A DNA stretch of 27,930 nt, from the IMG/VR virus record IMGVR_UViG_2529292904_000023, one strand, 5' to 3'. Each line of letters starts with the position of its first letter. Positions within the stretch are counted from its first letter, which is position 1. Below, piece after piece: positions 9,359 through 20,718 of the stretch. The position numbers were made by a program, and so were the translations under genes. The notes beneath the pieces are model-generated. The model worked only from the letters and a program-made list of their open reading frames with translations. It searched no databases and was not told the origin of the DNA. The stretch is from a virus. Taxonomy: Duplodnaviria > Heunggongvirae > Uroviricota > Caudoviricetes.

Positions 9359-10051
9359 TTAATTGTGTCGCTTAAGGGTTTGTGACTGACTGATTAAGAC
9401 CTTTCCAAAGACCATAAACCGATGTTCGTTTTCGCTGGTAATTCCCCATTCGCGGTAAATCTGATTATCAGAAATTACCAGCAGTTTATCAGGTATCATT
9501 TGCAGTCGTTTGACGTAAATTTTATCATCAAAACCAAATACATATATACCATCCCCATCAAACTGATTGATACTGATATCAACGAAGATGAGATCTCCTG
9601 GCTCAATGGTTGGACACATACTGTCCCCACGAACGTTGATAACTTTAATGTGATTTGCTGGTCGTCCACCAAACATCGATACAGCATTATCAGTTCTGTA
9701 TTCAATGGCATGAATCACATCAATGACATCACCGCCCTGGATAAGGCCATTTCCCGCACTGGCACTGACATCCAGCATTTCAATACGGAATACATCCTTC
9801 ACCTGCGCAACATCCTCACTAATACTGTTTTTACATACAGTATTACTTTTGAGGTCTGAGGTAAAGAGATCAGCAATATCAACACCTAAGCTCCTGGCAA
9901 TATTACTCAGGGCTTGTTCAGTGAATTGTTTCTGCTTACCTGTTTCGAGGCGCGAGATATTCGCCGCATCCACTCCTATTGCTTCAGCGAGATCGGCGAT
10001 TTTCATGTTCTTCGCCTGGCGAAGTTGTCTGACTCGATTTCCTATGTTCAT
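9359..10051 (-). CDS. cI: CI-type prophage repressor, HTH plus LexA-like S24 autopeptidase
   Basis: N-terminal HTH (QAKNMKIADLAEAIGVDAANISRLETG); Ala-Gly cleavage site (SASAG); S24 motifs VRGDSMCPTI and KRL. Confidence 0.85.
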   Translation of the reverse strand: MNIGNRVRQLRQAKNMKIADLAEAIGVDAANISRLETGKQKQFTEQALSNIARSLGVDIADLFTSDLKSNTVCKNSISEDVAQVKDVFRIEMLDVSASAGNGLIQGGDVIDVIHAIEYRTDNAVSMFGGRPANHIKVINVRGDSMCPTIEPGDLIFVDISINQFDGDGIYVFGFDDKIYVKRLQMIPDKLLVISDNQIYREWGITSENEHRFMVFGKVLISQSQTLKRHN

Positions 10052-10148: not shown

Positions 10149-10409
10149 ATGCAATCACCATTACGGAATGTGCGTAAGGCGCACGGATTTACTTTGCAGC
10201 ATGTTGCTGCGGGCGTTCAGGTCAATCCAGCGACGCTGAGTCGTATTGAAAGACAGGAACAAATTCCATCTATCGATCTTGCAGAACGTCTGGCCAATTT
10301 TTTTAAGGGTGAAATCAGCGAAATGCAGATTCTTTATCCGGCACGTTTTCAATCTAGCCAAAACCAGAATGGGTTTAAACCACAGGAACAGGAGGTAAGC
10401 CGTGGGTAA
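10149..10409 (+). CDS. cro: Cro-like HTH regulator
   Basis: 86 aa, HTH (FTLQHVAAGVQVNPATLSRIERQE); divergent from cI; GGAGG Shine-Dalgarno. Confidence 0.7.
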   Translation: MQSPLRNVRKAHGFTLQHVAAGVQVNPATLSRIERQEQIPSIDLAERLANFFKGEISEMQILYPARFQSSQNQNGFKPQEQEVSRG

Positions 10410-10953
10410 GCATCACTGGAAAGTGGAAAAACAACCTGAGTGGTACGTGAAAGCTGTCAGAAAAACTATCGCGGCGTTGCCGGGAGGTTACGCTGAAGCT
10501 GCTGAGTGGCTGGATGTAACAGAGAACGCTTTATTCAACCGCCTTCGTGCAGATGGCGATCAGATTTTCCCGCTGGGATGGGCAATGATTTTACAGCGCG
10601 CGGCTGGCACTCACTACATTGCGGATGCTGTCGCACAGTCTGCTGGTGGGGTGTTTGTATCGCTTCCTGAAATTGAGGAAGTAGAGAACGCCGATATAAA
10701 CCAGCGCCTGCTGGAAGCCATCGAACAGATCGGGAGTTACTCAAAGCAGATTCGTTCGGCAATCGAAGATGGGGTCGTGGAGCCACACGAGCAGACAGCA
10801 ATTAATGATGAGTTGTATCTGTCAATTTCGAAGCTCCAGGAGCATGCAGCACTGGTCTACAAAATCTTTTGCGCTCCAGAAAAGAGTGACGCCCGCGAGT
10901 GTGCAGCTCCGGGCGTCGTGGCGTTTTGTGTCTGTGGAGAAACTAACGCATGA
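10402..10953 (+). CDS. CII-like regulatory protein (phage 186 CII / CP76-type), tentative
   Basis: 183 aa immediately after cro, GTG start with CAGGAGG Shine-Dalgarno; resemblance to CP76-type regulators is from memory. Confidence 0.4.
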   Translation: MGKHHWKVEKQPEWYVKAVRKTIAALPGGYAEAAEWLDVTENALFNRLRADGDQIFPLGWAMILQRAAGTHYIADAVAQSAGGVFVSLPEIEEVENADINQRLLEAIEQIGSYSKQIRSAIEDGVVEPHEQTAINDELYLSISKLQEHAALVYKIFCAPEKSDARECAAPGVVAFCVCGETNA

Positions 10954-11549
10954 ACAGTTTAACGGCAAATAACCGTTTGTCGCAACAGCTGGTGGTCAGC
11001 GTCGCTGAACACCTGTTGTTACGGCATGAATGCAGATTACCAAATCACCTGGCTGTAAGTAACCACAGAGAACTTTACCTGACTGTGGGGGGCGAGTTGT
11101 GCAGGAACTTAACCGCTGGTTTCGTGACGGAAGAGGGCTTTATGTCCATGTTATTCGTTGGGAGCCAGAAACACAGCGCGTTATCTATCTTCGCAAAGAC
11201 TACCCGCATGAGTGCTTTAGTCCTTTGTGGAAATTCAGGCGTGATTTTGTTGAGTGTGAAGGACCACCAGCATATTGATTCTGCAATTCCGGGACGTTAC
11301 ACTGCTCAGGCACCTTATAAAGCGGGTGCCGGGATTGGCGTCCTGAAATTCGCACATGCGCATAACCGCGCTTCAGCGGTTTTTTTGCGCACGTTTCCTC
11401 ACATCCAAATTATGGTGGGGCGTGCAGGGGCATCGAAAGATGCGCCGGGGTCATGTGCGACCGGTTACGCCAACCCTGTACGTCTCACCACCTCTGTGAT
11501 TGGCGTCCCATGTGGTGAGTTTTCAAAATTCGCACATGAGGATGTCACT

Positions 11550-12095
11550 ATGGCAACCACCCCTACCCAAACTCACCCTAAAATTGATGTTATCCATGGG
11601 AAGGCTGTTACCTCTTCTTTGGCCGTTGCCGAATATTTCTGCAAGCAGCACAAAAACGTTATTCAAAAAATCCAGACGCTTGAGTGCTCTGTTGAATTCA
11701 CTGAGCTGAATTTTCAGCCCAGTGATTACACCGATTGCACAGGCCGCAAACTCCCTTGTTACCAAATCACCCGCGACGGTTTTGCGTTTCTTGCCATGGG
11801 CTTCACGGGTAAACGTGCTGCCCAGTTCAAAGAGGCATACATCAATGCCTTTAACCAGATGGAGAAACAGCTTTCAAATCCCTCTGTACTGAGCGACGTT
11901 GCACATAACGCCAGCGTTCTCTATTCCTACATTTCATCAATTCATCAGGTCTGGCTGCAGCAGCTTTATCCTATGTTGGCAAAAGCCGAATCTCCGCTGG
12001 CTGTTAGCTTGTATGACTATATTAATGATGCTTCGGCACTGGCCTGCCTCATAAATTTGTCGCTGAACCCTTCAGAGGTAAGGGGGCGCAAATGA
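11550..12095 (+). CDS. rha: Rha-family phage regulatory protein
   Basis: KAVTSSLAVAEYFCKQHKNVIQKIQTL...YQITRDGFAFLAMGFTGKRAAQFKEAYINAFNQME; start ATG 11550 with GAGGA Shine-Dalgarno; the 600-nt upstream extension in the track is not accepted as part of this gene. Confidence 0.7.
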   Translation: MATTPTQTHPKIDVIHGKAVTSSLAVAEYFCKQHKNVIQKIQTLECSVEFTELNFQPSDYTDCTGRKLPCYQITRDGFAFLAMGFTGKRAAQFKEAYINAFNQMEKQLSNPSVLSDVAHNASVLYSYISSIHQVWLQQLYPMLAKAESPLAVSLYDYINDASALACLINLSLNPSEVRGRK

Positions 12096-12316
12096 TCCGG
12101 AATATTTTCAAACGGTTTACCAATCAGACTTTCCGTTGTCCTCGTCCGGGTCAGTGGTACACCACACCTGCAGGGCATGTTCTACGTGTTAGCCTGGTTG
12201 ACCGTGAATGTCAGAAGGTGATTTGTGAACCGCTGGGCCGTAATTACCGCGTCAGTATGCCGCTTATAGCCTTTCGCTCCGGAAAAAACATGAAGCATCT
12301 CGGAGGTGCAGCATGA
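12092..12316 (+). CDS. Hypothetical protein, 74 aa
   Basis: ATGA-coupled to both neighbours. Confidence 0.45.
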   Translation: MIRNIFKRFTNQTFRCPRPGQWYTTPAGHVLRVSLVDRECQKVICEPLGRNYRVSMPLIAFRSGKNMKHLGGAA

Positions 12317-13152
12317 GTATGGAGCTGATGGTTAAAGCGATGAAAATTCGAGTGGGTAATCCATTGCGAAAACTGGTTCTGATCAAGCTGGCTGATAATG
12401 CCAGCGATCAGGGTGAGTGCTGGCCCAGCTACCAGCATATTGCTGACCAGTGCGAGATTAGCAAACGTTCTGTGATGAATCATATTGCGGCCCTTTGTGA
12501 GTCCGGGCTGGTAAAAAAAGTCACCCGGAAAGGTGAAAAAGGTAACTCAAGTAATATCTATCTCCTTCATCTTGATGGTGCAGGAGATTCACTAGGGAGT
12601 AGTGCAAATAATTCACTATCTGGTGCAGCAAATTCACCAGGTAGTGCAGGAGTTGCACTAGGTAGTGCAGGAGTTGCACCAGGGGGTAGTGCAGGAGATT
12701 CACCCAGAACCAGTCACTCTTTTGAACCAGTCAAAGAACCAGTCAATGAACCAATAGCTGTTGGTGCATCTGCTGATGAGTCTGTGCGAGTTCGTTCAAA
12801 CCGACCGGAATACTCTCCAGAGTTTGAGCAGGCATGGCTGGCATATCCCAAACGTGCTGGTGGCAATTCAAAATCTGCAGCCTTCAAAGCCTGGAAAGCC
12901 CGTTTGAATGAGGGGGTAAACCCCGAAACCATGCTGGAAGGTGTGAAACGCTACGCGGGCTGGGTATCTGCGATGGGTAACAGCGGCACACAATTTGTGA
13001 AACAGGCTGTCACGTTCTTTGGTCCGGATCGTCATTTCGAAGAATCCTGGGAAGTTCCTGCGGTATCTGTAGCCGGACGTGAGGACCCGTACTTCAAAGC
13101 CAGTTACGGCAACGTGGACTACAGCCAGATCCCGGCAGGATTCAGGGGGTGA
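12313..13152 (+). CDS. Replication initiator-like protein (winged-helix N-terminus, YdaU/DUF1376-like) containing the iteron array
   Basis: N-terminal LVLIKLADNASDQGECWPSYQHIADQCEISKRSVMNHIAALCESGLVKK; internal low-complexity segment encoded by the tandem repeats; position equivalent to lambda O. Confidence 0.55.
   Translation: MSMELMVKAMKIRVGNPLRKLVLIKLADNASDQGECWPSYQHIADQCEISKRSVMNHIAALCESGLVKKVTRKGEKGNSSNIYLLHLDGAGDSLGSSANNSLSGAANSPGSAGVALGSAGVAPGGSAGDSPRTSHSFEPVKEPVNEPIAVGASADESVRVRSNRPEYSPEFEQAWLAYPKRAGGNSKSAAFKAWKARLNEGVNPETMLEGVKRYAGWVSAMGNSGTQFVKQAVTFFGPDRHFEESWEVPAVSVAGREDPYFKASYGNVDYSQIPAGFRG
12577..12705. repeat. Iteron array (about six ~21-bp direct repeats, consensus GGTAGTGCAGGAGTTGCACYA), candidate replication origin
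   Basis: Direct repeats read in the sequence, followed at 12706-12760 by three GAACCAGTCA repeats; lambda-like ori lies inside the initiator gene. Confidence 0.6.
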
Positions 13153-13154
13153 TC

Positions 13155-13643
13155 ATGAGTCTTTTGAATGACGTTCAGAAATTCATTGAAGCCCATCCGG
13201 GGTGTACTTCCGGAGACATTGCGGATGCTTTTGCCGGTTACTCACGGCAGCGCGTTCTGCAGTCAGCAAGCAAGTTACGTCAGAGTGGGCGTGTGGCTCA
13301 CCGTTGTGAAGGAGATACACGCAGACATTTCCCGCGCCTGACTGAGAGAGCGCAGGAACCGGAACCACAACCAGTTCGAGAAACCAGACCTGTGCGCAAT
13401 TTCTATGTCGGCACTAACGATCCACGGGTGATTTTGTGCCTGACCCGCCAGGCGGAAGAACTGGAGTCCAGGGGCTTATACCGTCGTGCTGCAACGGTGT
13501 GGATGGCGGCATTCCGTGAAAGCCACTCCCAGCAAGAGCGAAACAATTTTCTGGCGCGTCGTGAGCGGTGCTTACGGAAAAGCAGCAAGCGCGCTGCATC
13601 GGGTGAAGAGTGGTATCTGTCAGGGAATTACGTGGGGGCTTAA
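13155..13643 (+). CDS. Hypothetical protein with a winged-helix-like N-terminus
   Basis: ATG 13155 with AGGGGGT Shine-Dalgarno; an alternative GTG at 13149 overlaps the upstream stop. Confidence 0.4.
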   Translation: MSLLNDVQKFIEAHPGCTSGDIADAFAGYSRQRVLQSASKLRQSGRVAHRCEGDTRRHFPRLTERAQEPEPQPVRETRPVRNFYVGTNDPRVILCLTRQAEELESRGLYRRAATVWMAAFRESHSQQERNNFLARRERCLRKSSKRAASGEEWYLSGNYVGA

Positions 13644-14296
13644 TGAGTAATAAATATTGCCAGGCGCTGGTGGAACTGCGGAACAAACCAGCCCATGAAC
13701 TGAAGGAAGTGGGCGATCAGTGGCGCACGCCGGACAACATTTTCTGGGGAATTAACACCCTGTTTGGCCCGTTTGTTCTGGATCTGTTCACTGACGGTGA
13801 TAATGCCAAATGTGCCGCGTATTACACGGCGGAAGACAACGCGCTGGCGCATGACTGGTCAGAACGTCTTGCGGAGCTTAAAGGTGCTGCCTTTGGTAAT
13901 CCCCCATACAGCCGCGCCAGTCAGCATGAGGGGCAATACATCACCGGCATGCGTTACATCATGAAGCATGCCAGTGCCATGCGTGATAAAGGCGGGCGCT
14001 ATGTTTTCCTGATTAAAGCTGCCACCAGCGAAGTGTGGTGGCCGGAAGATGCAGATCATATTGCTTTTATTCGCGGGCGTATTGGTTTTGAACTGCCTGT
14101 CTGGTTTATCCCGAAAGACGAGAAGCAGGTACCGACAGGCGCTTTCTTCGCTGGTGCTATTGCTGTTTTCGACAAGACCTGGAAGGGACCGGCAATCAGC
14201 TACATCGGGCGCGATGAACTTGAGGCATGTGGTGAGGCCTTTCTGGCGCAGGTTCGCCAGCAGGCGGAAAAACTGGTCAGGGAGATGGCGGCATGA
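13643..14296 (+). CDS. Phage Dam-like N6-adenine DNA methyltransferase (orphan)
   Basis: Catalytic NPPY motif (FGNPPYSRAS); start ATG 13643 in TAATG overlap; no adjacent restriction gene. Confidence 0.7.
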   Translation: MSNKYCQALVELRNKPAHELKEVGDQWRTPDNIFWGINTLFGPFVLDLFTDGDNAKCAAYYTAEDNALAHDWSERLAELKGAAFGNPPYSRASQHEGQYITGMRYIMKHASAMRDKGGRYVFLIKAATSEVWWPEDADHIAFIRGRIGFELPVWFIPKDEKQVPTGAFFAGAIAVFDKTWKGPAISYIGRDELEACGEAFLAQVRQQAEKLVREMAA

Positions 14297-14619
14297 CGAC
14301 GTTAACTCAATGCCAGCAGCAGGTGCTGGATATGCTGATTTCTTACCAGAAAGAGCGTGGCTTTCCGCCAACCAATCAGGAGGTGGCAACCATGCTGGGA
14401 TATCGTTCAGTGAATGCAGCGGTGGAGCATCTTCGCGCACTGGAGAAAAAAGGCGTCATCACGATAAAGCGTGGTGTGGCCCGGGGGATAACGCTTCATA
14501 CCGCGGTGAAGGACGACGACAGCGAGGCGGTCGGGATTATCCGCTCACTGCTTGCCGGTGAGGAAAACGCCAGGCTGCGTGCAGCCCACTGGTTACATGA
14601 GAGGGGTCTGAAAGTATGA
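14293..14619 (+). CDS. LexA N-terminal DNA-binding-domain-only protein, no S24 peptidase domain
   Basis: LTQCQQQVLDMLISYQKERGFPPTNQEVATMLGYRSVNAAVEHLRALEKKGVITI closely parallels the recalled LexA N-terminus; 108 aa total. Confidence 0.7.
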   Translation: MTTLTQCQQQVLDMLISYQKERGFPPTNQEVATMLGYRSVNAAVEHLRALEKKGVITIKRGVARGITLHTAVKDDDSEAVGIIRSLLAGEENARLRAAHWLHERGLKV

Positions 14620-15005
14620 AGCTGATTCTGCCTTTCCCGCCCAGCGTGAACACGTACTGGCGACACCCCAACAAAGGGGCGTTTGCAGGTAAGAGCCTGA
14701 TAAGCGCGGCGGGGCGAAAATTCCAGAGCGCAGCGTGTGCAGCCATCATTGAGCAGTTACGTCGTTTGCCGAAACCAACGTCGGCACCAGCTTCAGTGGA
14801 GATCGTGTTGTTTCCTCCGGATAACCGGCTTCGCGATCTGGACAACTATAACAAGGCGCTGTTTGACGCCCTGACCCACGCGGGTGTGTGGGTGGACGAC
14901 AGCCAGGTGAAAAGAATGCTGGTGGAGTGGGGGCCGGTTATCCCGGAAGGGAAGGTCGAAATCACTATCAGTAAGTACGAGAAAACGGCGGGTGCAGCCG
15001 CCTGA
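14616..15005 (+). CDS. rusA: RusA Holliday-junction resolvase
   Basis: PPSVNTYWRH, RLRDLDNYNKALFDALTHAGVWVDDSQV; about 129 aa. Confidence 0.85.
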   Translation: MKLILPFPPSVNTYWRHPNKGAFAGKSLISAAGRKFQSAACAAIIEQLRRLPKPTSAPASVEIVLFPPDNRLRDLDNYNKALFDALTHAGVWVDDSQVKRMLVEWGPVIPEGKVEITISKYEKTAGAAA

Positions 15006-15024: not shown

Positions 15025-15822
15025 ATGAGTAATCTGATGGTTATTGATGGTATTGAAGTTCGTCGTGATGCTTATGGTCGTTACAGCCTGAACGATCTGC
15101 ACAGGGCTGCCGGTTCTCTGGATAAGCATAAGCCTGCATTCTGGCTCCGCAATGAGCAAACTGAACGTTTAATAAGCGAGTTGCAGATTTGCAACTCGGT
15201 CAATATAGCGCCAGTAAATGTCATTCGAGGTGGAAATAACCAGGGAACGTATGTCTGCAAGGAACTGGTGTATGCCTATGCAATGTGGATCAGCCCGTCA
15301 TTCCATCTGAAGGTGATCCGTACTTTCGATATGGTAACCAGCGCACCGGAAAAATTATCAGGACAGGCTGCTGACAAGATGCAGGCTGGCGTGATCCTGC
15401 TGGACTTTATGCGTCGGGAGTTAAACCTGTCTAACTCATCTGTGCTTGGTGCCTGTCAGAAACTCCAGGAGGCTGTTGGCTTACCGAATCTGGCACCGCG
15501 CTATGCCATTGATGCTCCTGCTGACGCGCCTGATGGCTCAAGTCGCCCCACGCTGTCGCTGAGTGCACTGCTGAAACAGTATGGTATCCGCCTGACGGCT
15601 AATCAGGCATATCACCAGATGGTGAAGCTGGGGATCGTCGAGCAGCGCGAACGATACAGCCGTACCGCGATTAACAACATCAAAAAATTCTGGTCGCTGA
15701 CGGCGAAAGGCTGCATGTTCGGCAAGAACATCACCAGTCCTGCAAATCCGCGCGAGACGCAGCCGCACTTCTTCGAATCCCGATTCCCTGAGCTGTTAAA
15801 GCTGCTCGATACCGTTCATTGA
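15025..15822 (+). CDS. KilA-N domain protein with an uncharacterised C-terminal domain
   Basis: N-terminal IDGIEVRRDAYGRYSLNDLHRAAG...AFWLRNEQTERLI...YVCKELVYAYAMWISPSFHLKVI; AGGAGA Shine-Dalgarno. Confidence 0.6.
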   Translation: MSNLMVIDGIEVRRDAYGRYSLNDLHRAAGSLDKHKPAFWLRNEQTERLISELQICNSVNIAPVNVIRGGNNQGTYVCKELVYAYAMWISPSFHLKVIRTFDMVTSAPEKLSGQAADKMQAGVILLDFMRRELNLSNSSVLGACQKLQEAVGLPNLAPRYAIDAPADAPDGSSRPTLSLSALLKQYGIRLTANQAYHQMVKLGIVEQRERYSRTAINNIKKFWSLTAKGCMFGKNITSPANPRETQPHFFESRFPELLKLLDTVH

Positions 15823-15823
15823 G

Positions 15824-16819
15824 GTGACCGTGAGAGCACTACTGACCCCTGAAATTGCCCCGCGTATGGGGATCGTATTGTTCAGACCAGGTTCAGAGCT
15901 GATGCCCCTGTTTATGCAGGGGCGTGTCCTGCTGGAGCCTGAGCCGGAACGTTATTCATCTTTCGCCAGTGGTGCCGTTCCGGCGGCATCACAACCGCTG
16001 GCGGATGATCCTGCCGTTCGGGCCGTGTTCCGCAATGATGCAGTGATCCGTCGTGCTGGTGGCGTGGAATGTCTTGAACGCTGGTTACTTCGTGAAAAAG
16101 GTTGCCAGTGGCCTCATTCCGACTGGCACAGCGAGAACATGACCACAATGCGACACTCGCCGGGCGCAATCCGTCTGTGCTGGCACTGCGATAACCAGCT
16201 GCGCGATCAGTTCACGGAACGGCTGGAATCAATGGCAACGGATAACTGTACCCGCTGGGTGTTGTCTGTTGTGCGTCGGGATCTCGGTTTTGATGACAGT
16301 CACGTTGTGACAATGCCGGAACTGTGCTGGTGGCTGATTCGTAATGACCTGGCGGATGCCTTACCGGAAAGTGCAGCCCGTAAGGCACTGAGATTACCGA
16401 AGCCTGTTGTGCCGTCTGTCACCCGGGAAAGTGACCTTGTGCCTTCGGTTCCTGCCACCAGCATCATCCAGGATAAAGCGAAAAAGGTGCTGGCGCTGAA
16501 AGTGGATCCGGAGTCGCCGGAGTCTTTTATGTTACGCCCAAAACGTCGCCGCTGGGTTAATGAAAAGTACACGCGCTGGGTTAAGACACAGCCGTGTGCA
16601 TGTTGTGGAAAGCCCGCTGATGATCCCCACCACCTGATAGGCCACGGTCAGTGTGGAATGGGTACAAAAGCGCATGACCTTTTTGTGTTGCCTTTGTGCA
16701 GAAAGCATCACGACGAGCTGCATGCGGATACCGTGGCATTTGAAGAGAAGTATGGCTCTCAGCTGGAGCTGATATTTCGTTTTATCGATCGTGCGCTGGC
16801 AATTGGCGTACTGGCGTAA
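15824..16819 (+). CDS. DUF968-like protein with a C-terminal HNH/zinc-finger-like motif
   Basis: C-terminal CACCGKPADDPHHLIGHG...CRKHHDELH; GTG start at 15824 or 15830. Confidence 0.55.
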   Translation: MTVRALLTPEIAPRMGIVLFRPGSELMPLFMQGRVLLEPEPERYSSFASGAVPAASQPLADDPAVRAVFRNDAVIRRAGGVECLERWLLREKGCQWPHSDWHSENMTTMRHSPGAIRLCWHCDNQLRDQFTERLESMATDNCTRWVLSVVRRDLGFDDSHVVTMPELCWWLIRNDLADALPESAARKALRLPKPVVPSVTRESDLVPSVPATSIIQDKAKKVLALKVDPESPESFMLRPKRRRWVNEKYTRWVKTQPCACCGKPADDPHHLIGHGQCGMGTKAHDLFVLPLCRKHHDELHADTVAFEEKYGSQLELIFRFIDRALAIGVLA

Positions 16820-16832
16820 GTGGAGAACGAGC

Positions 16833-17585
16833 ATGAACCTTGAAGCCTTACCGAAATATTACTCCCCGAAATCTCCAAAACTGAGCGATGACGCACCGGC
16901 GACAGGCTCTGGTGGTTTAACAATTACGGATGTGATGGCTGCGCAGGGGATGGTGCAGTCAAAAGCACCGCTTGGGTTTGCTTTATTCCTGGCAAAAGTT
17001 GGTGTTCAGGATCCTCAGTTTGCGATTGAAGGTCTGCTCAATTACGCGATGGCACTGGATAACCCGACATTGAATAAATTGAGTGAAGAAACCCGGCTAC
17101 AGATCATTCCTTACCTTGTGAATTTTGCCTTTGCTGATTATTCCAGGTCTGCGGCAAGTAAGGCTCGCTGTGAGCATTGTGCTGGTACTGGATTTCATAA
17201 TGTATTGCGCGAGGTGGTGAAACACTCCAGAAGCGGGGAATCTGTTATTAAGGAAGAGTGGGTGAAGGAACTATGTCAGCATTGTCATGGTAAGGGAGAA
17301 GTCAGCACAGCATGCAGAGGGTGCAAGGGTAAAGGTATTGTCCTGGATGAAAAAAGAACCCGGCTTCATGGCACACCTGTTTATAAGGTTTGTGGGCGTT
17401 GCAATGGAAACCGGTTTAGCAGTTTACCAACCACACTGGCGCGGCTTCATGTCCAGAAGCTGGTACCAGACCTGACGGATTATCAGTGGTACAAAGGATA
17501 TGCAGATGTCATTGATAAACTGGTTACAAAGTGCTGGCAGGAAGAAGCATATGCAGAGATACAATTGAGAAAGGTGACAAGATAA
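16833..17585 (+). CDS. Q: Late-gene antiterminator Q (phage 82 / QuuQ-like type)
   Basis: 250 aa directly upstream of the pR'/tR' candidate and the tRNA island; four Cys-x2-Cys pairs (CEHC, CQHC, CRGC, CGRC); GGAGA Shine-Dalgarno. Confidence 0.6.
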   Translation: MNLEALPKYYSPKSPKLSDDAPATGSGGLTITDVMAAQGMVQSKAPLGFALFLAKVGVQDPQFAIEGLLNYAMALDNPTLNKLSEETRLQIIPYLVNFAFADYSRSAASKARCEHCAGTGFHNVLREVVKHSRSGESVIKEEWVKELCQHCHGKGEVSTACRGCKGKGIVLDEKRTRLHGTPVYKVCGRCNGNRFSSLPTTLARLHVQKLVPDLTDYQWYKGYADVIDKLVTKCWQEEAYAEIQLRKVTR

Positions 17586-18087: not shown

Positions 18088-18163
18088 GGCCCTTTAGCTC
18101 AGTGGTGAGAGCGAGCGACTCATAATCGCCAGGTCGCTGGTTCAAATCCAGCAAGGGCCACCA
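18088..18163 (+). tRNA. tRNA with CAU anticodon (Ile2/Met type, ileZ-like)
   Basis: Cloverleaf folded by hand: 7-bp acceptor stem, GCTC/GAGC D-stem, anticodon loop CTCATAA, T-loop TTCAAAT, encoded CCA. Confidence 0.85.
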
Positions 18164-18172
18164 TATCACATA

Positions 18173-18249
18173 CCGCCATTAGCTCATCGGGATAGAGCGT
18201 CAGCCTTCGAAGCTGGCTGTGCGGGGTTCAAGTCCCCGATGGCGGTCCA
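18173..18249 (+). tRNA. tRNA-Arg (anticodon UCG)
   Basis: Acceptor CCGCCAT/ATGGCGG, anticodon loop CTTCGAA, T-arm CGGGG-TTCAAGT-CCCCG, encoded CCA. Confidence 0.8.
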
Positions 18250-18262
18250 TTATCAGCATCAT

Positions 18263-18339
18263 GCGTTGTTAGCTCAGCCGGACAGAGCAATTGCCTTCTA
18301 AGCAATCGGTCACTGGTTCGAATCCAGTACAACGCGCCA
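18263..18339 (+). tRNA. tRNA-Arg (anticodon UCU)
   Basis: Acceptor GCGTTGT/ACAACGC, anticodon loop CTTCTAA, T-loop TTCGAAT, encoded CCA. Confidence 0.85.
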
Positions 18340-18626
18340 CACCACACTTATCTGCCCTGACTCTCTTTTGCGGGCTTTTTATTACAGGAAAGACACCGGA
18401 CAGTGAAATGTTAAATGCCTCACAATTCAGGTAGTCGACTGTTGCCTGACATGCTGAGCGTTTGTTAAAAAAATCCTGCATGATGAATCCCCCTGGGCGG
18501 CGGGGCATAATGACAGATGTTTGGTTGCGTATTGTATAGGCAAGTTGCGGATTCTGTCTGGTCATTGCAGAATTCACCGGGAGGCACCCGGCATCATGCT
18601 GTATACAGAGATTAGGCATATATCCA

Positions 18627-18652
18627 GGCTCCTCATCGCAGGAGCCTTTTTA
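18627..18652 (+). terminator. Rho-independent terminator
   Basis: GGCTCCT-catcgc-AGGAGCC followed by TTTTT. Confidence 0.6.
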
Positions 18653-18656
18653 CATG

Positions 18657-18682
18657 CAAAAAAAGCCCGAGTAGGTTCGGGC
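18657..18682 (-). terminator. Convergent minus-strand terminator
   Basis: A-run then GCCCGA-gtaggt-TCGGGC; reads as hairpin plus T-run on the minus strand. Confidence 0.5.
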
Positions 18683-18864
18683 AACAGCATGAGATACTTG
18701 CATTGTCATTTTTATCGTGTGGATTTTAACCAGGGTTTATCAGGCTGCGCAACTGCGTGGCCTTTTTTCATTTCTTGGGCTGTAGTCCCCGTGTGTCATT
18801 CAGGCTTCCGGACTACAGCCCACTCCATATCTGATTTAATACACTATCCCGGCCGGGAGGAATA

Positions 18865-20718
18865 ATGACATTTAAACATTATGATGTTGTCAGGGCGGCG
18901 TCGCCGTCAGACCTTGCGGAAAAGCTGACACACAAACTGAAAGAGGGCTGGCAGCCGTTTGGTAGTCCGGTGGCCATAACCCCTTATACCCTGATGCAGG
19001 CGATTACAGCAGAAGGTGATGTGATGGTCAGTGGTGCAACTGAGCCGGATTGGTACTACGTCATCGTACTGGCCGGGCAGTCCAATGCCATGGCTTACGG
19101 TGAAGGGCTTCCGCTTCCGGATTCATACGATGCGCCCCATCCGCGCATTAAGCAACTGGCCCGTCGTAACACAGTGACTCCCGGTGGTGAAGTATGCGTA
19201 TTTAACGACATCATTCCTGCTGACCATTGTCTGCATGATGTTCAGGATATGAGTACGATTAACCATCCCCGGGCTGACCTGAGCAAAGGGCAGTACGGCT
19301 GTGTCGGACAGGGCTTACATATTGCCAAAAAACTGCTTCCGTATATCCCTAATAATGCGGGGATCCTGCTGGTACCATGCTGTCGTGGTGGTTCGGCATT
19401 CACCCAGGGCACGGAGGGGACATTCAGCGAGTCCACGGGGGCCAGTCAGGATTCGGCTCGCTGGGGAGTGGGTAAGCCGTTATATCAGGATCTGCTTTTC
19501 CGCACGAAGGCAGCATTGCAGAAAAACCCGAAAAACGTTTTGCTGGCGATATGCTGGATGCAGGGGGAATTCGATATGACGAATGCCAGTTACGCCCAGC
19601 AGCCAGCAGCATTTCTTGCAATGGTACAGCAGTTCCGTGCTGACCTTGCCGGGCTGGCGGCGCAGTGTCACGGTGGAAGTCCGGCATCAGTCCCCTGGAT
19701 TTGTGGCGACACGACATACGCGTGGAAACAAGAACACGGTACGCAATATGAAGTGGTATATGGTGCATATAAAGGTAAAGAATCCCAGCAGATTTATTTT
19801 GTTCCCTTTATGACCGATGGTAGCGGAGTTAATACACCGACAAACAACCCGTCAGAAGATCCTGATATTGTCGGGTCTGGTTATTACGGTTCGGCATCCC
19901 GAACGAACAAAAACTGGGTATCATCAAATCGCCCGACGCATTTCAGCTCATGGGCGCGTCGTGGCATTATTCCCGATCGTATGGCAACCGCTATTCTGAA
20001 CGCAGCCGGGCGCACCTCAGCCTTCATCAGTGGTAAGGCACCGGAAATCAAACCCTCGCCCGGCGGCGACACGCCATCGGGTCCGTCTACAGATACGTCC
20101 GTTCGCACAATCTCCCTGCTGCCGACAGCCGGAGAGGCTGCTGCGCAGGGCTGGACCATTAAGGACGGCGGAATTCAGTTGTCGGGTGGTGTATTTAAGA
20201 TCGCCAAGCAGAGCAATAAAACCTGGTCCCTGACGCGCCCGGTGGATGACGCAGTCTCCCTGCTGACACGGGGTGGCAGACTGAGCTGTAAGTTTCGACT
20301 GTCAGGCGCACTGACCAACAATCAGTTCGGTCTGGGAATTTATCTGTATACCGATGTAGCGTTACCTGACGTCGTGGCGATGACGGGTACCGGTAACCCG
20401 TTCCTGATGTCGTTCTTCACCCAGACCACAGACGGCAAACTGAATCTGATGCATCACAAGAAAGCAGGAAACACAAAGTTGGGCGAGTTCGGGAATTACA
20501 GTAACGACTGGCAGACGCTGGAGCTGGTGTTCACCGCCGGCAGTGCCACGGTTACTCCGAAACTGAATGGAGTGGCTGGCCCGGCATTCCAGGTCATAAA
20601 AGACAGTCTGACACTGGGGCTGAATGCGCTGACGCTGACGGATATTACCAAAAATGCAGCGTATGGCGTTGAGATAGAAAGTCTGGTGCTGGAGATAAAT
20701 GCACCGGCATCATCATAA
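18865..20718 (+). CDS. nanS-p: NanS-p-type sialate O-acetylesterase (SGNH/DUF303 esterase with C-terminal extension)
   Basis: VIVLAGQSNAMAYGEG catalytic-serine motif; 617 aa; occupies the position downstream of the tRNA island where Stx phages carry the homolog; GGGAGGA Shine-Dalgarno. Confidence 0.8.
   Translation: MTFKHYDVVRAASPSDLAEKLTHKLKEGWQPFGSPVAITPYTLMQAITAEGDVMVSGATEPDWYYVIVLAGQSNAMAYGEGLPLPDSYDAPHPRIKQLARRNTVTPGGEVCVFNDIIPADHCLHDVQDMSTINHPRADLSKGQYGCVGQGLHIAKKLLPYIPNNAGILLVPCCRGGSAFTQGTEGTFSESTGASQDSARWGVGKPLYQDLLFRTKAALQKNPKNVLLAICWMQGEFDMTNASYAQQPAAFLAMVQQFRADLAGLAAQCHGGSPASVPWICGDTTYAWKQEHGTQYEVVYGAYKGKESQQIYFVPFMTDGSGVNTPTNNPSEDPDIVGSGYYGSASRTNKNWVSSNRPTHFSSWARRGIIPDRMATAILNAAGRTSAFISGKAPEIKPSPGGDTPSGPSTDTSVRTISLLPTAGEAAAQGWTIKDGGIQLSGGVFKIAKQSNKTWSLTRPVDDAVSLLTRGGRLSCKFRLSGALTNNQFGLGIYLYTDVALPDVVAMTGTGNPFLMSFFTQTTDGKLNLMHHKKAGNTKLGEFGNYSNDWQTLELVFTAGSATVTPKLNGVAGPAFQVIKDSLTLGLNALTLTDITKNAAYGVEIESLVLEINAPASS

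Follow-up and report, generated by a model that had tools for sequence, protein, structure and literature searches.

Replisome organisers of Firmicute phages and DnaD consist of a DnaD-type winged-helix N-domain and a helical C-domain, as exemplified by G38P of phage SPP1, in which oriL lies inside gene 38. In phage lambda, the origin is composed of 19-bp imperfect inverted repeats in the middle of gene O, next to an unwinding tract, and the iterons of Shiga toxin (Stx) phages are arranged likewise (PMC7466680). Among 314 lambdoid phages, 34 encode only an O homologue, without helicase or loader (PMC12315714), and the 'Eru6' replication region has as its type phage Stx2a_WGPS2, in which an HTH_36 protein was noted (PMC8951638). 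In Stx phages, replication drives toxin production and the type of replication region is linked to virulence (PMC8044961, PMC8951638). The present analysis concerns the replication initiator gene of a lambdoid prophage, contained in a 27,930-nt stretch of Caudoviricetes DNA (IMG/VR record IMGVR_UViG_2529292904_000023), which as a whole is called the window. To judge from the sequence, positions 12577-12760, inside the linker of this initiator gene, are probably the replication origin of the prophage, and a mechanism can be proposed for it. The origin is of a familiar kind, an iteron origin within an initiator gene; the variant is widespread and unstudied.

This reading is based on what is directly visible in the locus and its relatives: the anatomy of the region, constraint at the DNA level, co-variation of the repeats with a DNA-binding helix, modular tails of the initiator and the absence of a loader gene. 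Initiator-solo modules were reportedly described by Weigel and Seitz in 2006. No earlier description was found of the conserved junction element next to the iterons, of the partner-specific tails or of the DnaT-type tail of solo initiators, and an earlier prediction of the iterons is possible. The word 'iteron' is absent from PMC8951638 and PMC8044961, and neither an origin nor a mechanism for the HTH_36 O-only or Eru6 class was found in the searchable literature.

The initiator (Table 1) matches the Pfam family HTH_36 (PF13730) above the cutoff (1.9e-11), DnaD_N weakly, and PHROG 270, 'replication initiation protein' (5.4e-88), and by these matches it is a member of HTH_36 and PHROG 270. Pfam returned no match to Phage_rep_O and hence no sign of homology to lambda O. 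The preliminary description had pointed to ydaU-type prophage replicons for comparison, a parallel that falls with the lack of a DUF1376/YdaU match in Pfam, PHROG and NCBIfam. The AlphaFold2 model places a winged-helix N-domain first, followed by a disordered linker that contains the repeats, a helical C-core (residues 165-230 in the model) and a flexible tail. The N-domain comprises helices at residues 3-11, 17-28, 40-47 and 51-63 and wing strands at 67-73 and 79-85, with a predicted recognition helix at about residues 48-63 (EISKRSVMNHIAALCE), and Foldseek retrieved generic winged-helix folds only, the DnaD N-domain among them. The linker between this domain and the C-core (residues 91-164) is predicted to be disordered, with a predicted local distance difference test score (pLDDT) of 30-39. 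Pfam and AlphaFold2 thus give one winged helix and a helical C-core, not the two-winged-helix architecture of Rep_3. The fold of the C-core is uncertain, and searches with the C-terminal half in Pfam, NCBIfam and PDB sequences yielded nothing usable.

The preliminary description had reported about six direct repeats of about 21 bp within the initiator coding sequence, and both points are borne out. Tandem Repeats Finder delimits an array at 12578-12703 (period 21, 5.7 copies, 73% matches, score 93), and a motif scan resolves it into six units that share an inverted repeat, GTGCA-N5-TKCAC. This core has six exact matches on the + strand and none elsewhere in the 27.9-kb window; dinucleotide-preserving shuffles gave a mean of 0.17 matches, and 0 of 100 reached the observed count. 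The units follow each other at 24/21/21/21/24 bp, or approximately two helical turns, and lie in the disordered linker (aa 89-131). Since the linker is predicted to be disordered, its repeats need no role in a protein fold. Additionally, they were compared with a peptide null, in which synonymous codons were resampled for the same peptide 1000 times: 7 palindrome centres were observed (mean 0.75 and maximum 5 under resampling), together with 17 exact 9-mer direct repeats (0.26 under resampling). Repeats and dyad symmetry exceed this null and are therefore no by-product of the peptide. The array shares with lambda-type origins the presence of at least four direct repeats in the initiator open reading frame (ORF), each iteron being an imperfect inverted repeat, and it is located between the DNA-binding and C-terminal domains, which supports the likeness to the lambda ori inside O that had been drawn.

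Three further repeats had been listed after the iterons. Three exact copies of GAACCAGTCA are indeed present, at 12707, 12724 and 12736, with no other exact copy in the window, and a degenerate fourth copy, GAACCAATAG, begins at 12748 (Tandem Repeats Finder: 12724-12753, period 12, 2.5 copies, 94% matches). They are not a second set of iterons; they belong to a junction element of approximately 29-37 nt, distinct from the iterons and conserved family-wide, whose consensus is AGAACCAGTCAC-TCTTTT-GAACCAGTCAA(t/a)-GAACC and which lies at a fixed distance after the last iteron in every lineage. In a comparison of six lineages picked by protein similarity only, the codon is identical in 6 of 7 invariant amino acid columns at the junction, with a pairwise codon identity of 0.92, compared with 1 of 33 such columns and an identity of 0.37 in the N-domain. 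A rare AGA arginine codon is among those kept identical. The two core copies are offset by 17 nt, which puts them in different frames (R-T-S-H and E-P-V), so that they form no peptide repeat. Shewanella lineages keep both 10-mers at a 15-nt spacing, the first being read P-E-P-V (PEPVTLEPV), Avibacterium keeps AACCAGTCAAT, read N-Q-S-I, and in Aliivibrio the second copy is replaced by an A/T run, AAAAAATATAAAAAAATC. As the motif is kept across reading frames, it is conserved as DNA, whatever peptide it encodes.

The junction element is found in 139 phage records, always within the initiator gene, and their hosts include Escherichia, Salmonella, Klebsiella, Pectobacterium, Vibrio, Pseudomonas, Stenotrophomonas and Aggregatibacter. 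When 80 genome loci were picked through N-domain peptides alone, 68 contained it, allowing no more than 6 mismatches over 29 nt. With regard to duplex stability, the mean profile of 41 lineages has a minimum at the element (z +1.4 to +1.65) and another immediately to the left of the iterons (mean z about +1.2), and in 29 of the 41 lineages one or the other of these shoulders contains the least stable 30-mer of the gene. In the window itself, the left shoulder has a nearest-neighbour free energy (dG) of -32.5, relative to a window mean of -40.8 (sd 3.6). Taken from its sequence features, the junction element may be an unwinding or helicase-loading site. Two other readings of this position, as a programmed frameshift or as an RNA element, were considered and rejected, as there is no Rfam match and the TCTTTTG stretch is not in slippery register. 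The 10-mer core also occurs in inverted form, as ACTGGTTCT, at 12372-12380.

The iterons could be real and the GAACCAGTCA element something else, either a homology 'linker' for recombination between N- and C-terminal modules or a peptide motif, RTSHSFEPV. The element is located exactly at the boundary of the two modules, and the C-domains downstream of it are of many unrelated types. Natural chimeras (P0156, P0160 and P0162), in which an F403-type or ECSKSAV-type N-domain travels together with its iterons and is joined to a window-type C-half, have their crossover within it. Moreover, in the window, the least stable DNA flanks the iterons on the opposite, left side. The peptide version is ruled out by the retention of the DNA motif in different reading frames. 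Of the homology version, it has to be said that the codon-level identity is seen among lineages otherwise saturated at synonymous sites, and that selection for recombination potential alone exerts little force for preserving about 29 nt in five orders (Enterobacterales, Vibrionales, Pseudomonadales, Pasteurellales and Alteromonadales). The A/T run of Aliivibrio in place of one copy and the predicted disorder of the peptide (pLDDT 30-39) also speak against this explanation, which we regard as unlikely. An unwinding site and a recombination patch do not exclude each other.

For the function of 12577-12760 as an origin, the following steps are proposed. Dimers of the N-terminal winged-helix domain would bind the six dyad-symmetric 15-mers. 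The resulting nucleoprotein complex would destabilise a flank, most likely the right-hand one with the conserved GAACCAGTCA element. This element would be the place of unwinding and helicase loading and might be recognised as single-stranded DNA in a sequence-specific manner; plasmid Rep proteins bind the repeated 13-mers of the DNA unwinding element (DUE) as single-stranded DNA (PMC4081077). In the last and least certain step, the flexible DnaT-like tail SQIPAGFRG would recruit the DnaC-DnaB complex of the host, because the phage has neither loader nor helicase.

The tail shares 8 of 9 residues with the end of E. coli DnaT, SQIPPGFRG, and both are C-terminal. Across 120 DnaT clusters, the terminal IPxGFRG hardly varies, and it ends 51 of 5559 ORFs (at least 80 aa, in 1.4 Mb of DNA), all 51 being initiators or DnaT. 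The C-terminus of DnaT is a highly flexible 20-residue tail (PMC5778457), and that of the initiator is disordered in the AlphaFold2 model. No Pfam match to the DNA-binding domain of DnaT, PF17948, was found in the C-half of the initiator. Members of the family are modular, in that a front part made up of N-domain, iterons and junction element is combined with C-terminal parts of many unrelated kinds, and the final residues, about a dozen, vary with the identity of the following gene. Tails ending in W(K/R)DFI precede lambda-P homologues (PF06992), those ending in PETLRKTREGSL a DnaB-like helicase, those ending in NW, LTF or NF a DnaC-like and a DnaB-like gene, and those ending in YYYIER or FFDR a primase-helicase, while the tail of the window is followed by no replication gene. 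The C-core of the window (aa 165-249) is the same as that of PhiR49_2, phiP27 L17 and Stx2_14744 O, which differ from it in the tail and whose modules do have DnaC-like and DnaB-like genes. In O-only modules, the DnaT-type tail is present on three unrelated C-cores, namely those of the window, of PhiR29_2/VIT_AJPSC/K-12 YfdO and of phage LLS, a viable O-only phage whose O protein has a Phg_2220_C core and ends in KIPEGFRG. In its linker, the LLS O gene also has a 15-bp unit, TCTGACGCATCAAAA, that is present in four copies (L135 34522-34586), an array that is a candidate origin of LLS by its sequence.

The notion that the DnaT-type tail is confined to solo modules had to be dropped in view of two Enterobacter-group prophages, L137 and L139. 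Their YfdO-type initiator ends in RDINQISRPDNTVPPGFRG, identical to the DnaT end in 12 of 19 residues (E 2e-7), and is followed by a 246-aa DnaC without a helicase gene (L137 3001-4697, L139 3001-4661). Along its entire length, this DnaC shares 48-51% identity with E. coli DnaC, whereas the DnaC-like proteins of other modules reach 32-34%, in the ATPase part alone. As read from these sequences, the two phage genes copy the dnaT-dnaC pair of the host. We infer that the DnaT-type tail is matched to a host-type DnaC or to the DnaC-DnaB complex, and that solo initiators recruit the host loader with it. As a tentative extension, for which we see a lesser chance than for the origin itself, the tail of O-only initiators might be a mimic or an ancestor of that of DnaT, docking host DnaC-DnaB at the conserved unwinding element beside the iterons. 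If so, modules that combine this tail with a host-type DnaC would correspond in phages to the bacterial dnaT-dnaC operon and might be its source, and they would point to the partner of the DnaT tail. A different resemblance to DnaT occurs in Klebsiella phage ST15-VIM1phi2.1 (L011 2501-3235) and its relatives, whose initiators show a weak PF17948 match in the C-half (7e-4, below the Pfam cutoff) and pair with lambda-P-like loaders, in parallel with DopC/DopE (PMC5509034). This weak match explains the frequent annotation 'primosomal protein I'.

As the preliminary description had stated, no P- or DnaC-like loader is recognisable downstream: homologues of P, DnaC and DnaB are lacking after the initiator and in the whole 27.9-kb window, and the left arm and the late genes encode no helicase, primase or loader. 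The neighbour described as a winged-helix-like protein does have 162 residues and a weakly MarR-like N-terminal half; its identity is that of a PerC/YfdN-family regulator. It occupies the position of lambda P and accompanies the DnaT-type tail in 29 of 31 loci, so that it might itself be a new loader, in place of the tail. Alternatively, replication might depend on recombination (Chi, RecBCD, RecA and PriA-PriB-DnaT), the window being rich in Chi and without a Rec module, like LLS, whose growth is aided by RecBCD (PMC12315714). Both variants appear distinctly improbable. L111 and LLS, the latter a viable O-only phage, do not have the regulator gene, and its product matches transcription-regulator families only, for which reasons a role as necessary replication partner was rejected and the gene is not counted as part of the replicon. 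A DnaT-like tail would be unnecessary if the DnaT of the host did the job, and L137 and L139 pair the tail with a host-type DnaC.

The iterons themselves have counterparts in relatives, which keep iteron-like arrays in the corresponding position. Relatives with the same N-domain family (46-70% identity) have different dyad-symmetric repeats there: GGGGCAG-GAG-CTGCCCC in the F403/Min27 type, GTGAC-N5-GTCAC in Vibrio D160, CTGTGCC-N7-GGCACAG in S137 and ZF40, TGCCATC-T-GATGGCA in Klebsiella, and GTGAA-N5-TTCAC or GTGTAA-N3-TTACAC in other lineages. Over 41 lineages, 155 palindromes were counted, relative to about 39 from synonymous resampling. The class of repeat tracks the sequence of the recognition helix: EISKRSVM goes with GTGCA-N5-TGCAC, EMTRRSAI and EITKRSVM with GTGAA-N5-TTCAC, EIGRSTVK with GGGCAG-N3-CTGCCC, and ECSKSAVR with TGTGCC-N7-GGCACA. 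This co-variation fits cognate initiator-iteron pairs, a point that lends support without deciding the matter. Since many loci are almost identical to one another, they do not count as independent observations. Among proteins otherwise 90-97% identical, the iterons number 1, 2, 5, 6, 7 or 8-9, five being the common form (272 aa) and six that of the window. These copy-number alleles (proteins P0133, P0120, P0109, P0105, P0093, P0092 and P0111), in which the 12-nt unit has 2-4 copies, may in some low-copy cases be defective prophages.

Such polymorphism, from 1 to 9 copies, could be expected of an array that is mainly a control element, acting by titration, handcuffing, incompatibility or autoregulation, and the iterons of plasmids and lambda also act in copy control. 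Nevertheless, no other repeat array or origin-like feature was found in the early region of the window, and the array agrees with known phage origins in its architecture and position (PMC7466680). Control as the main role has a small chance at best, and the two roles are compatible. Finally, the view that slippage generated the 21-bp repeats as a Gly/Ser/Ala-rich low-complexity linker with no DNA role, which draws on 7-aa repeats predicted to be disordered and on copy numbers that vary freely in frame, is hardly credible in the face of dyads and exact repeats far above the synonymous-codon nulls, which each lineage keeps despite a different sequence and peptide and whose class follows the recognition helix.

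Several observations weigh against an origin of the proposed mechanism at 12577-12760. In the window, the right-hand junction element has a mere 57-63% A+T and the left shoulder is the weakest duplex, and there is no DnaA-box or integration host factor (IHF) consensus in or beside the array. The 120 viral loci used for the junction element were selected with the motif itself, and the unbiased sets (the six lineages and the 80 loci) are smaller. The co-variation of helix and repeat is inseparable from physical linkage, the two being adjacent. For the tail, no assigned partner was found in the studies of DnaT in PMC5778457, PMC13377028 and PMC4132743, and a DnaT-like C-core was not detected (hhalign probability 0.4%). 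Moreover, nothing is known on the replication proteins of Eru phages (PMC8951638), and O-only lambdoid phages are unstudied, their replication being 'not yet understood' (PMC12315714).

The surroundings of the array were also scanned for other signals. GATC sites are not clustered in or beside it, and a promoter and terminator scan gave no enrichment. A hairpin, TCACCCGGAAAGGTGA, is located at 12511-12536 after an A7 run, just left of the A/T-rich shoulder, and is terminator-like on the minus strand.

Table 1. Features of the early-right region and of the initiator gene, in window coordinates
Feature	Position	Strand	Description
cI	9359-10051	-	early-right region
cro	10149-10409		early-right operon
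cII-like	10402-10953		early-right operon
Rha	11562-12095		early-right operon
Small ORF	12092-12316		early-right operon
Replication initiator gene	12313-13152	+	279 aa; from ORF, Pfam, PHROG and AlphaFold2 layout
Winged-helix DNA-binding domain (aa 1-88)	12313-12576	+	AlphaFold2, pLDDT 80-90
Left low-stability shoulder	12530-12577		67-70% A+T; least stable 30-mers of the gene
Iteron 1	12578-12592		GTGCAGGAGATTCAC
Iteron 2	12602-12616		GTGCAAATAATTCAC
Iteron 3	12623-12637		GTGCAGCAAATTCAC
Iteron 4	12644-12658		GTGCAGGAGTTGCAC; perfect dyad, matches on both strands
Iteron 5	12665-12679		GTGCAGGAGTTGCAC; perfect dyad
Iteron 6	12689-12703		GTGCAGGAGATTCAC; abuts the conserved junction element
Junction element	12704-12757		CCAGAACCAGTCAC-TCTTTT-GAACCAGTCAAA-GAACCAGTCAAT-GAACCAATAG
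Helical C-core (aa 165-249)	12805-13059	+	common to initiators followed by DnaC-like and DnaB-like genes
C-terminal tail SQIPAGFRG	13123-13149	+	matches the DnaT C-terminus
PerC/YfdN-family regulator	13155-13643	+	162 aa; Pfam PerC 2.2e-09; PHROG 1324 'transcriptional activator'; RefSeq name yfdN
Dam methylase	13643-14296		early-right operon
LexA-like	14293-14619		early-right operon
RusA	14616-15005		early-right operon
KilA-N	15025-15822		early-right operon
DUF968	15824-16819		early-right operon
Q	16791-17585		early-right operon

From the perspective of gene content, a 1.7-kb module around the initiator is 96-98% identical to Stx2a_WGPS2, Stx2a_1447, mEp460, SfV, 1720a-02 and Stx2c phages, with 98.1% for the Eru6 representative Stx2a_WGPS2. 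In SfV, the counterpart of the initiator is orf39, 'replication protein'. The order cI, cro, cII-like gene, Rha and helix-turn-helix protein, without helicase or loader, is that of the Eru6 and O-only types, and by sequence the module is of this 'Eru6' or 'O-only' lambdoid prophage type. The full gene is present in 896 of 5426 complete E. coli genomes, as well as in SfV, ST64B, mEp460 and many Stx2-converting phages. Upstream, between the cII-like gene and Rha, Rfam identifies the small RNA isrK (11310-11386, +) and a C4 antisense RNA (11408-11495, +); the mechanical ORF at 10950-12095 is thus mostly non-coding upstream of 11562, and Rha looks to be under P1-type c4/ant (immI-like) control. 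The left operon contains a yfbR-like gene (6720-7283), DUF2303/yfdQ (7384-8208) and a DnaQ-like exonuclease (2839-3414), and no recombination module of the Red or Erf type was found in it. Chi (GCTGGTGG) occurs 14 times in the window, with 11 sites on the + strand, relative to 1.07 expected from shuffles, and one site lies inside the initiator gene (12856-12863). Richness in Chi and the absence of a Rec module correspond to the LLS functional type of PMC12315714. Downstream of Q, three tRNAs (Met, Arg-tcg and Arg-tct) are followed by the small RNAs STnc100 and AgvB (Rfam) and then immediately by a nanS-p-type esterase (18088-18339, 18449-18717 and 18865-20718, from the tRNAs to the esterase). 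This is the layout of an Stx phage without stx genes, the gap leaving too little room for stxAB. AGA, the rare codon that is fixed in the junction element, is decoded by the tRNA-Arg(tct) that the phage carries.

The replicon type is common, and the analysis supplies a precise candidate origin for it, together with a cis element that is found throughout the family and is open to mutation with the protein left unaltered. It also offers a concrete hypothesis for helicase recruitment, which bears on replication restart, that is, on what the DnaT tail binds.

Compared with described systems, the locus combines elements of several. DopC, a domesticated protein, is a fusion of HTH_36 and DnaT_C in which no iterons were found (Brezellec et al., PMC5509034). 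DopC and DopE resemble the window initiator in joining an HTH_36 N-domain to a C-terminal part derived from DnaT (PMC5509034), although DopC has the three-helix domain of DnaT and a P-like partner, whereas the window protein has only the DnaT tail, iterons and no partner gene. With DnaT (primosomal protein I), the window initiator shares the extreme C-terminal IPxGFRG on a flexible tail, and the succession of initiator and DnaC in L137 and L139 mirrors the dnaT-dnaC gene order. It differs in lacking PF17948, and DnaT acts with PriA and PriB at abandoned forks rather than at an origin.

As in iteron plasmids (TrfA of RK2 and RepE of F; PMC4081077), the iterons stand beside conserved short tandem repeats. 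The window repeats have a 12-nt periodicity and 2-4 copies, as against the 13-mers of plasmids, a likeness of form drawn from the sequences, and the locus has neither a Rep_3 (WH1-WH2) initiator nor DnaA boxes.

The lambda ori and the six-iteron origins of the Stx phages P27 and 933W are similar to the window in having direct repeats, each of them also an inverted repeat, in the middle of the initiator gene, where they encode the linker between the domains (PMC7466680), and in the adjoining segment that is thought to unwind. The number of iterons is variable in both, with 4 or 6 in the lambda group and 1-9 in the family of the window. Unlike in lambda, the window iterons are 15 bp long at a spacing of 21-24 bp, the initiator is HTH_36/DnaD_N-like and not of the Phage_rep_O type, there is no P gene, and the flank is a sequence-conserved 10-12-mer repeat of about 60% A+T instead of an A/T tract. 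Firmicute phage replisome organisers resemble the window initiator in the DnaD-type winged helix, the helical C-domain and the location of origin repeats within the gene. Finally, the window is a member of the O-only class of LLS and Eru6, with Rha and an HTH_36 protein and without helicase or loader; the LLS initiator has an N-domain of another subfamily and a Phg_2220_C core, and it carries the same IPxGFRG end as the window.

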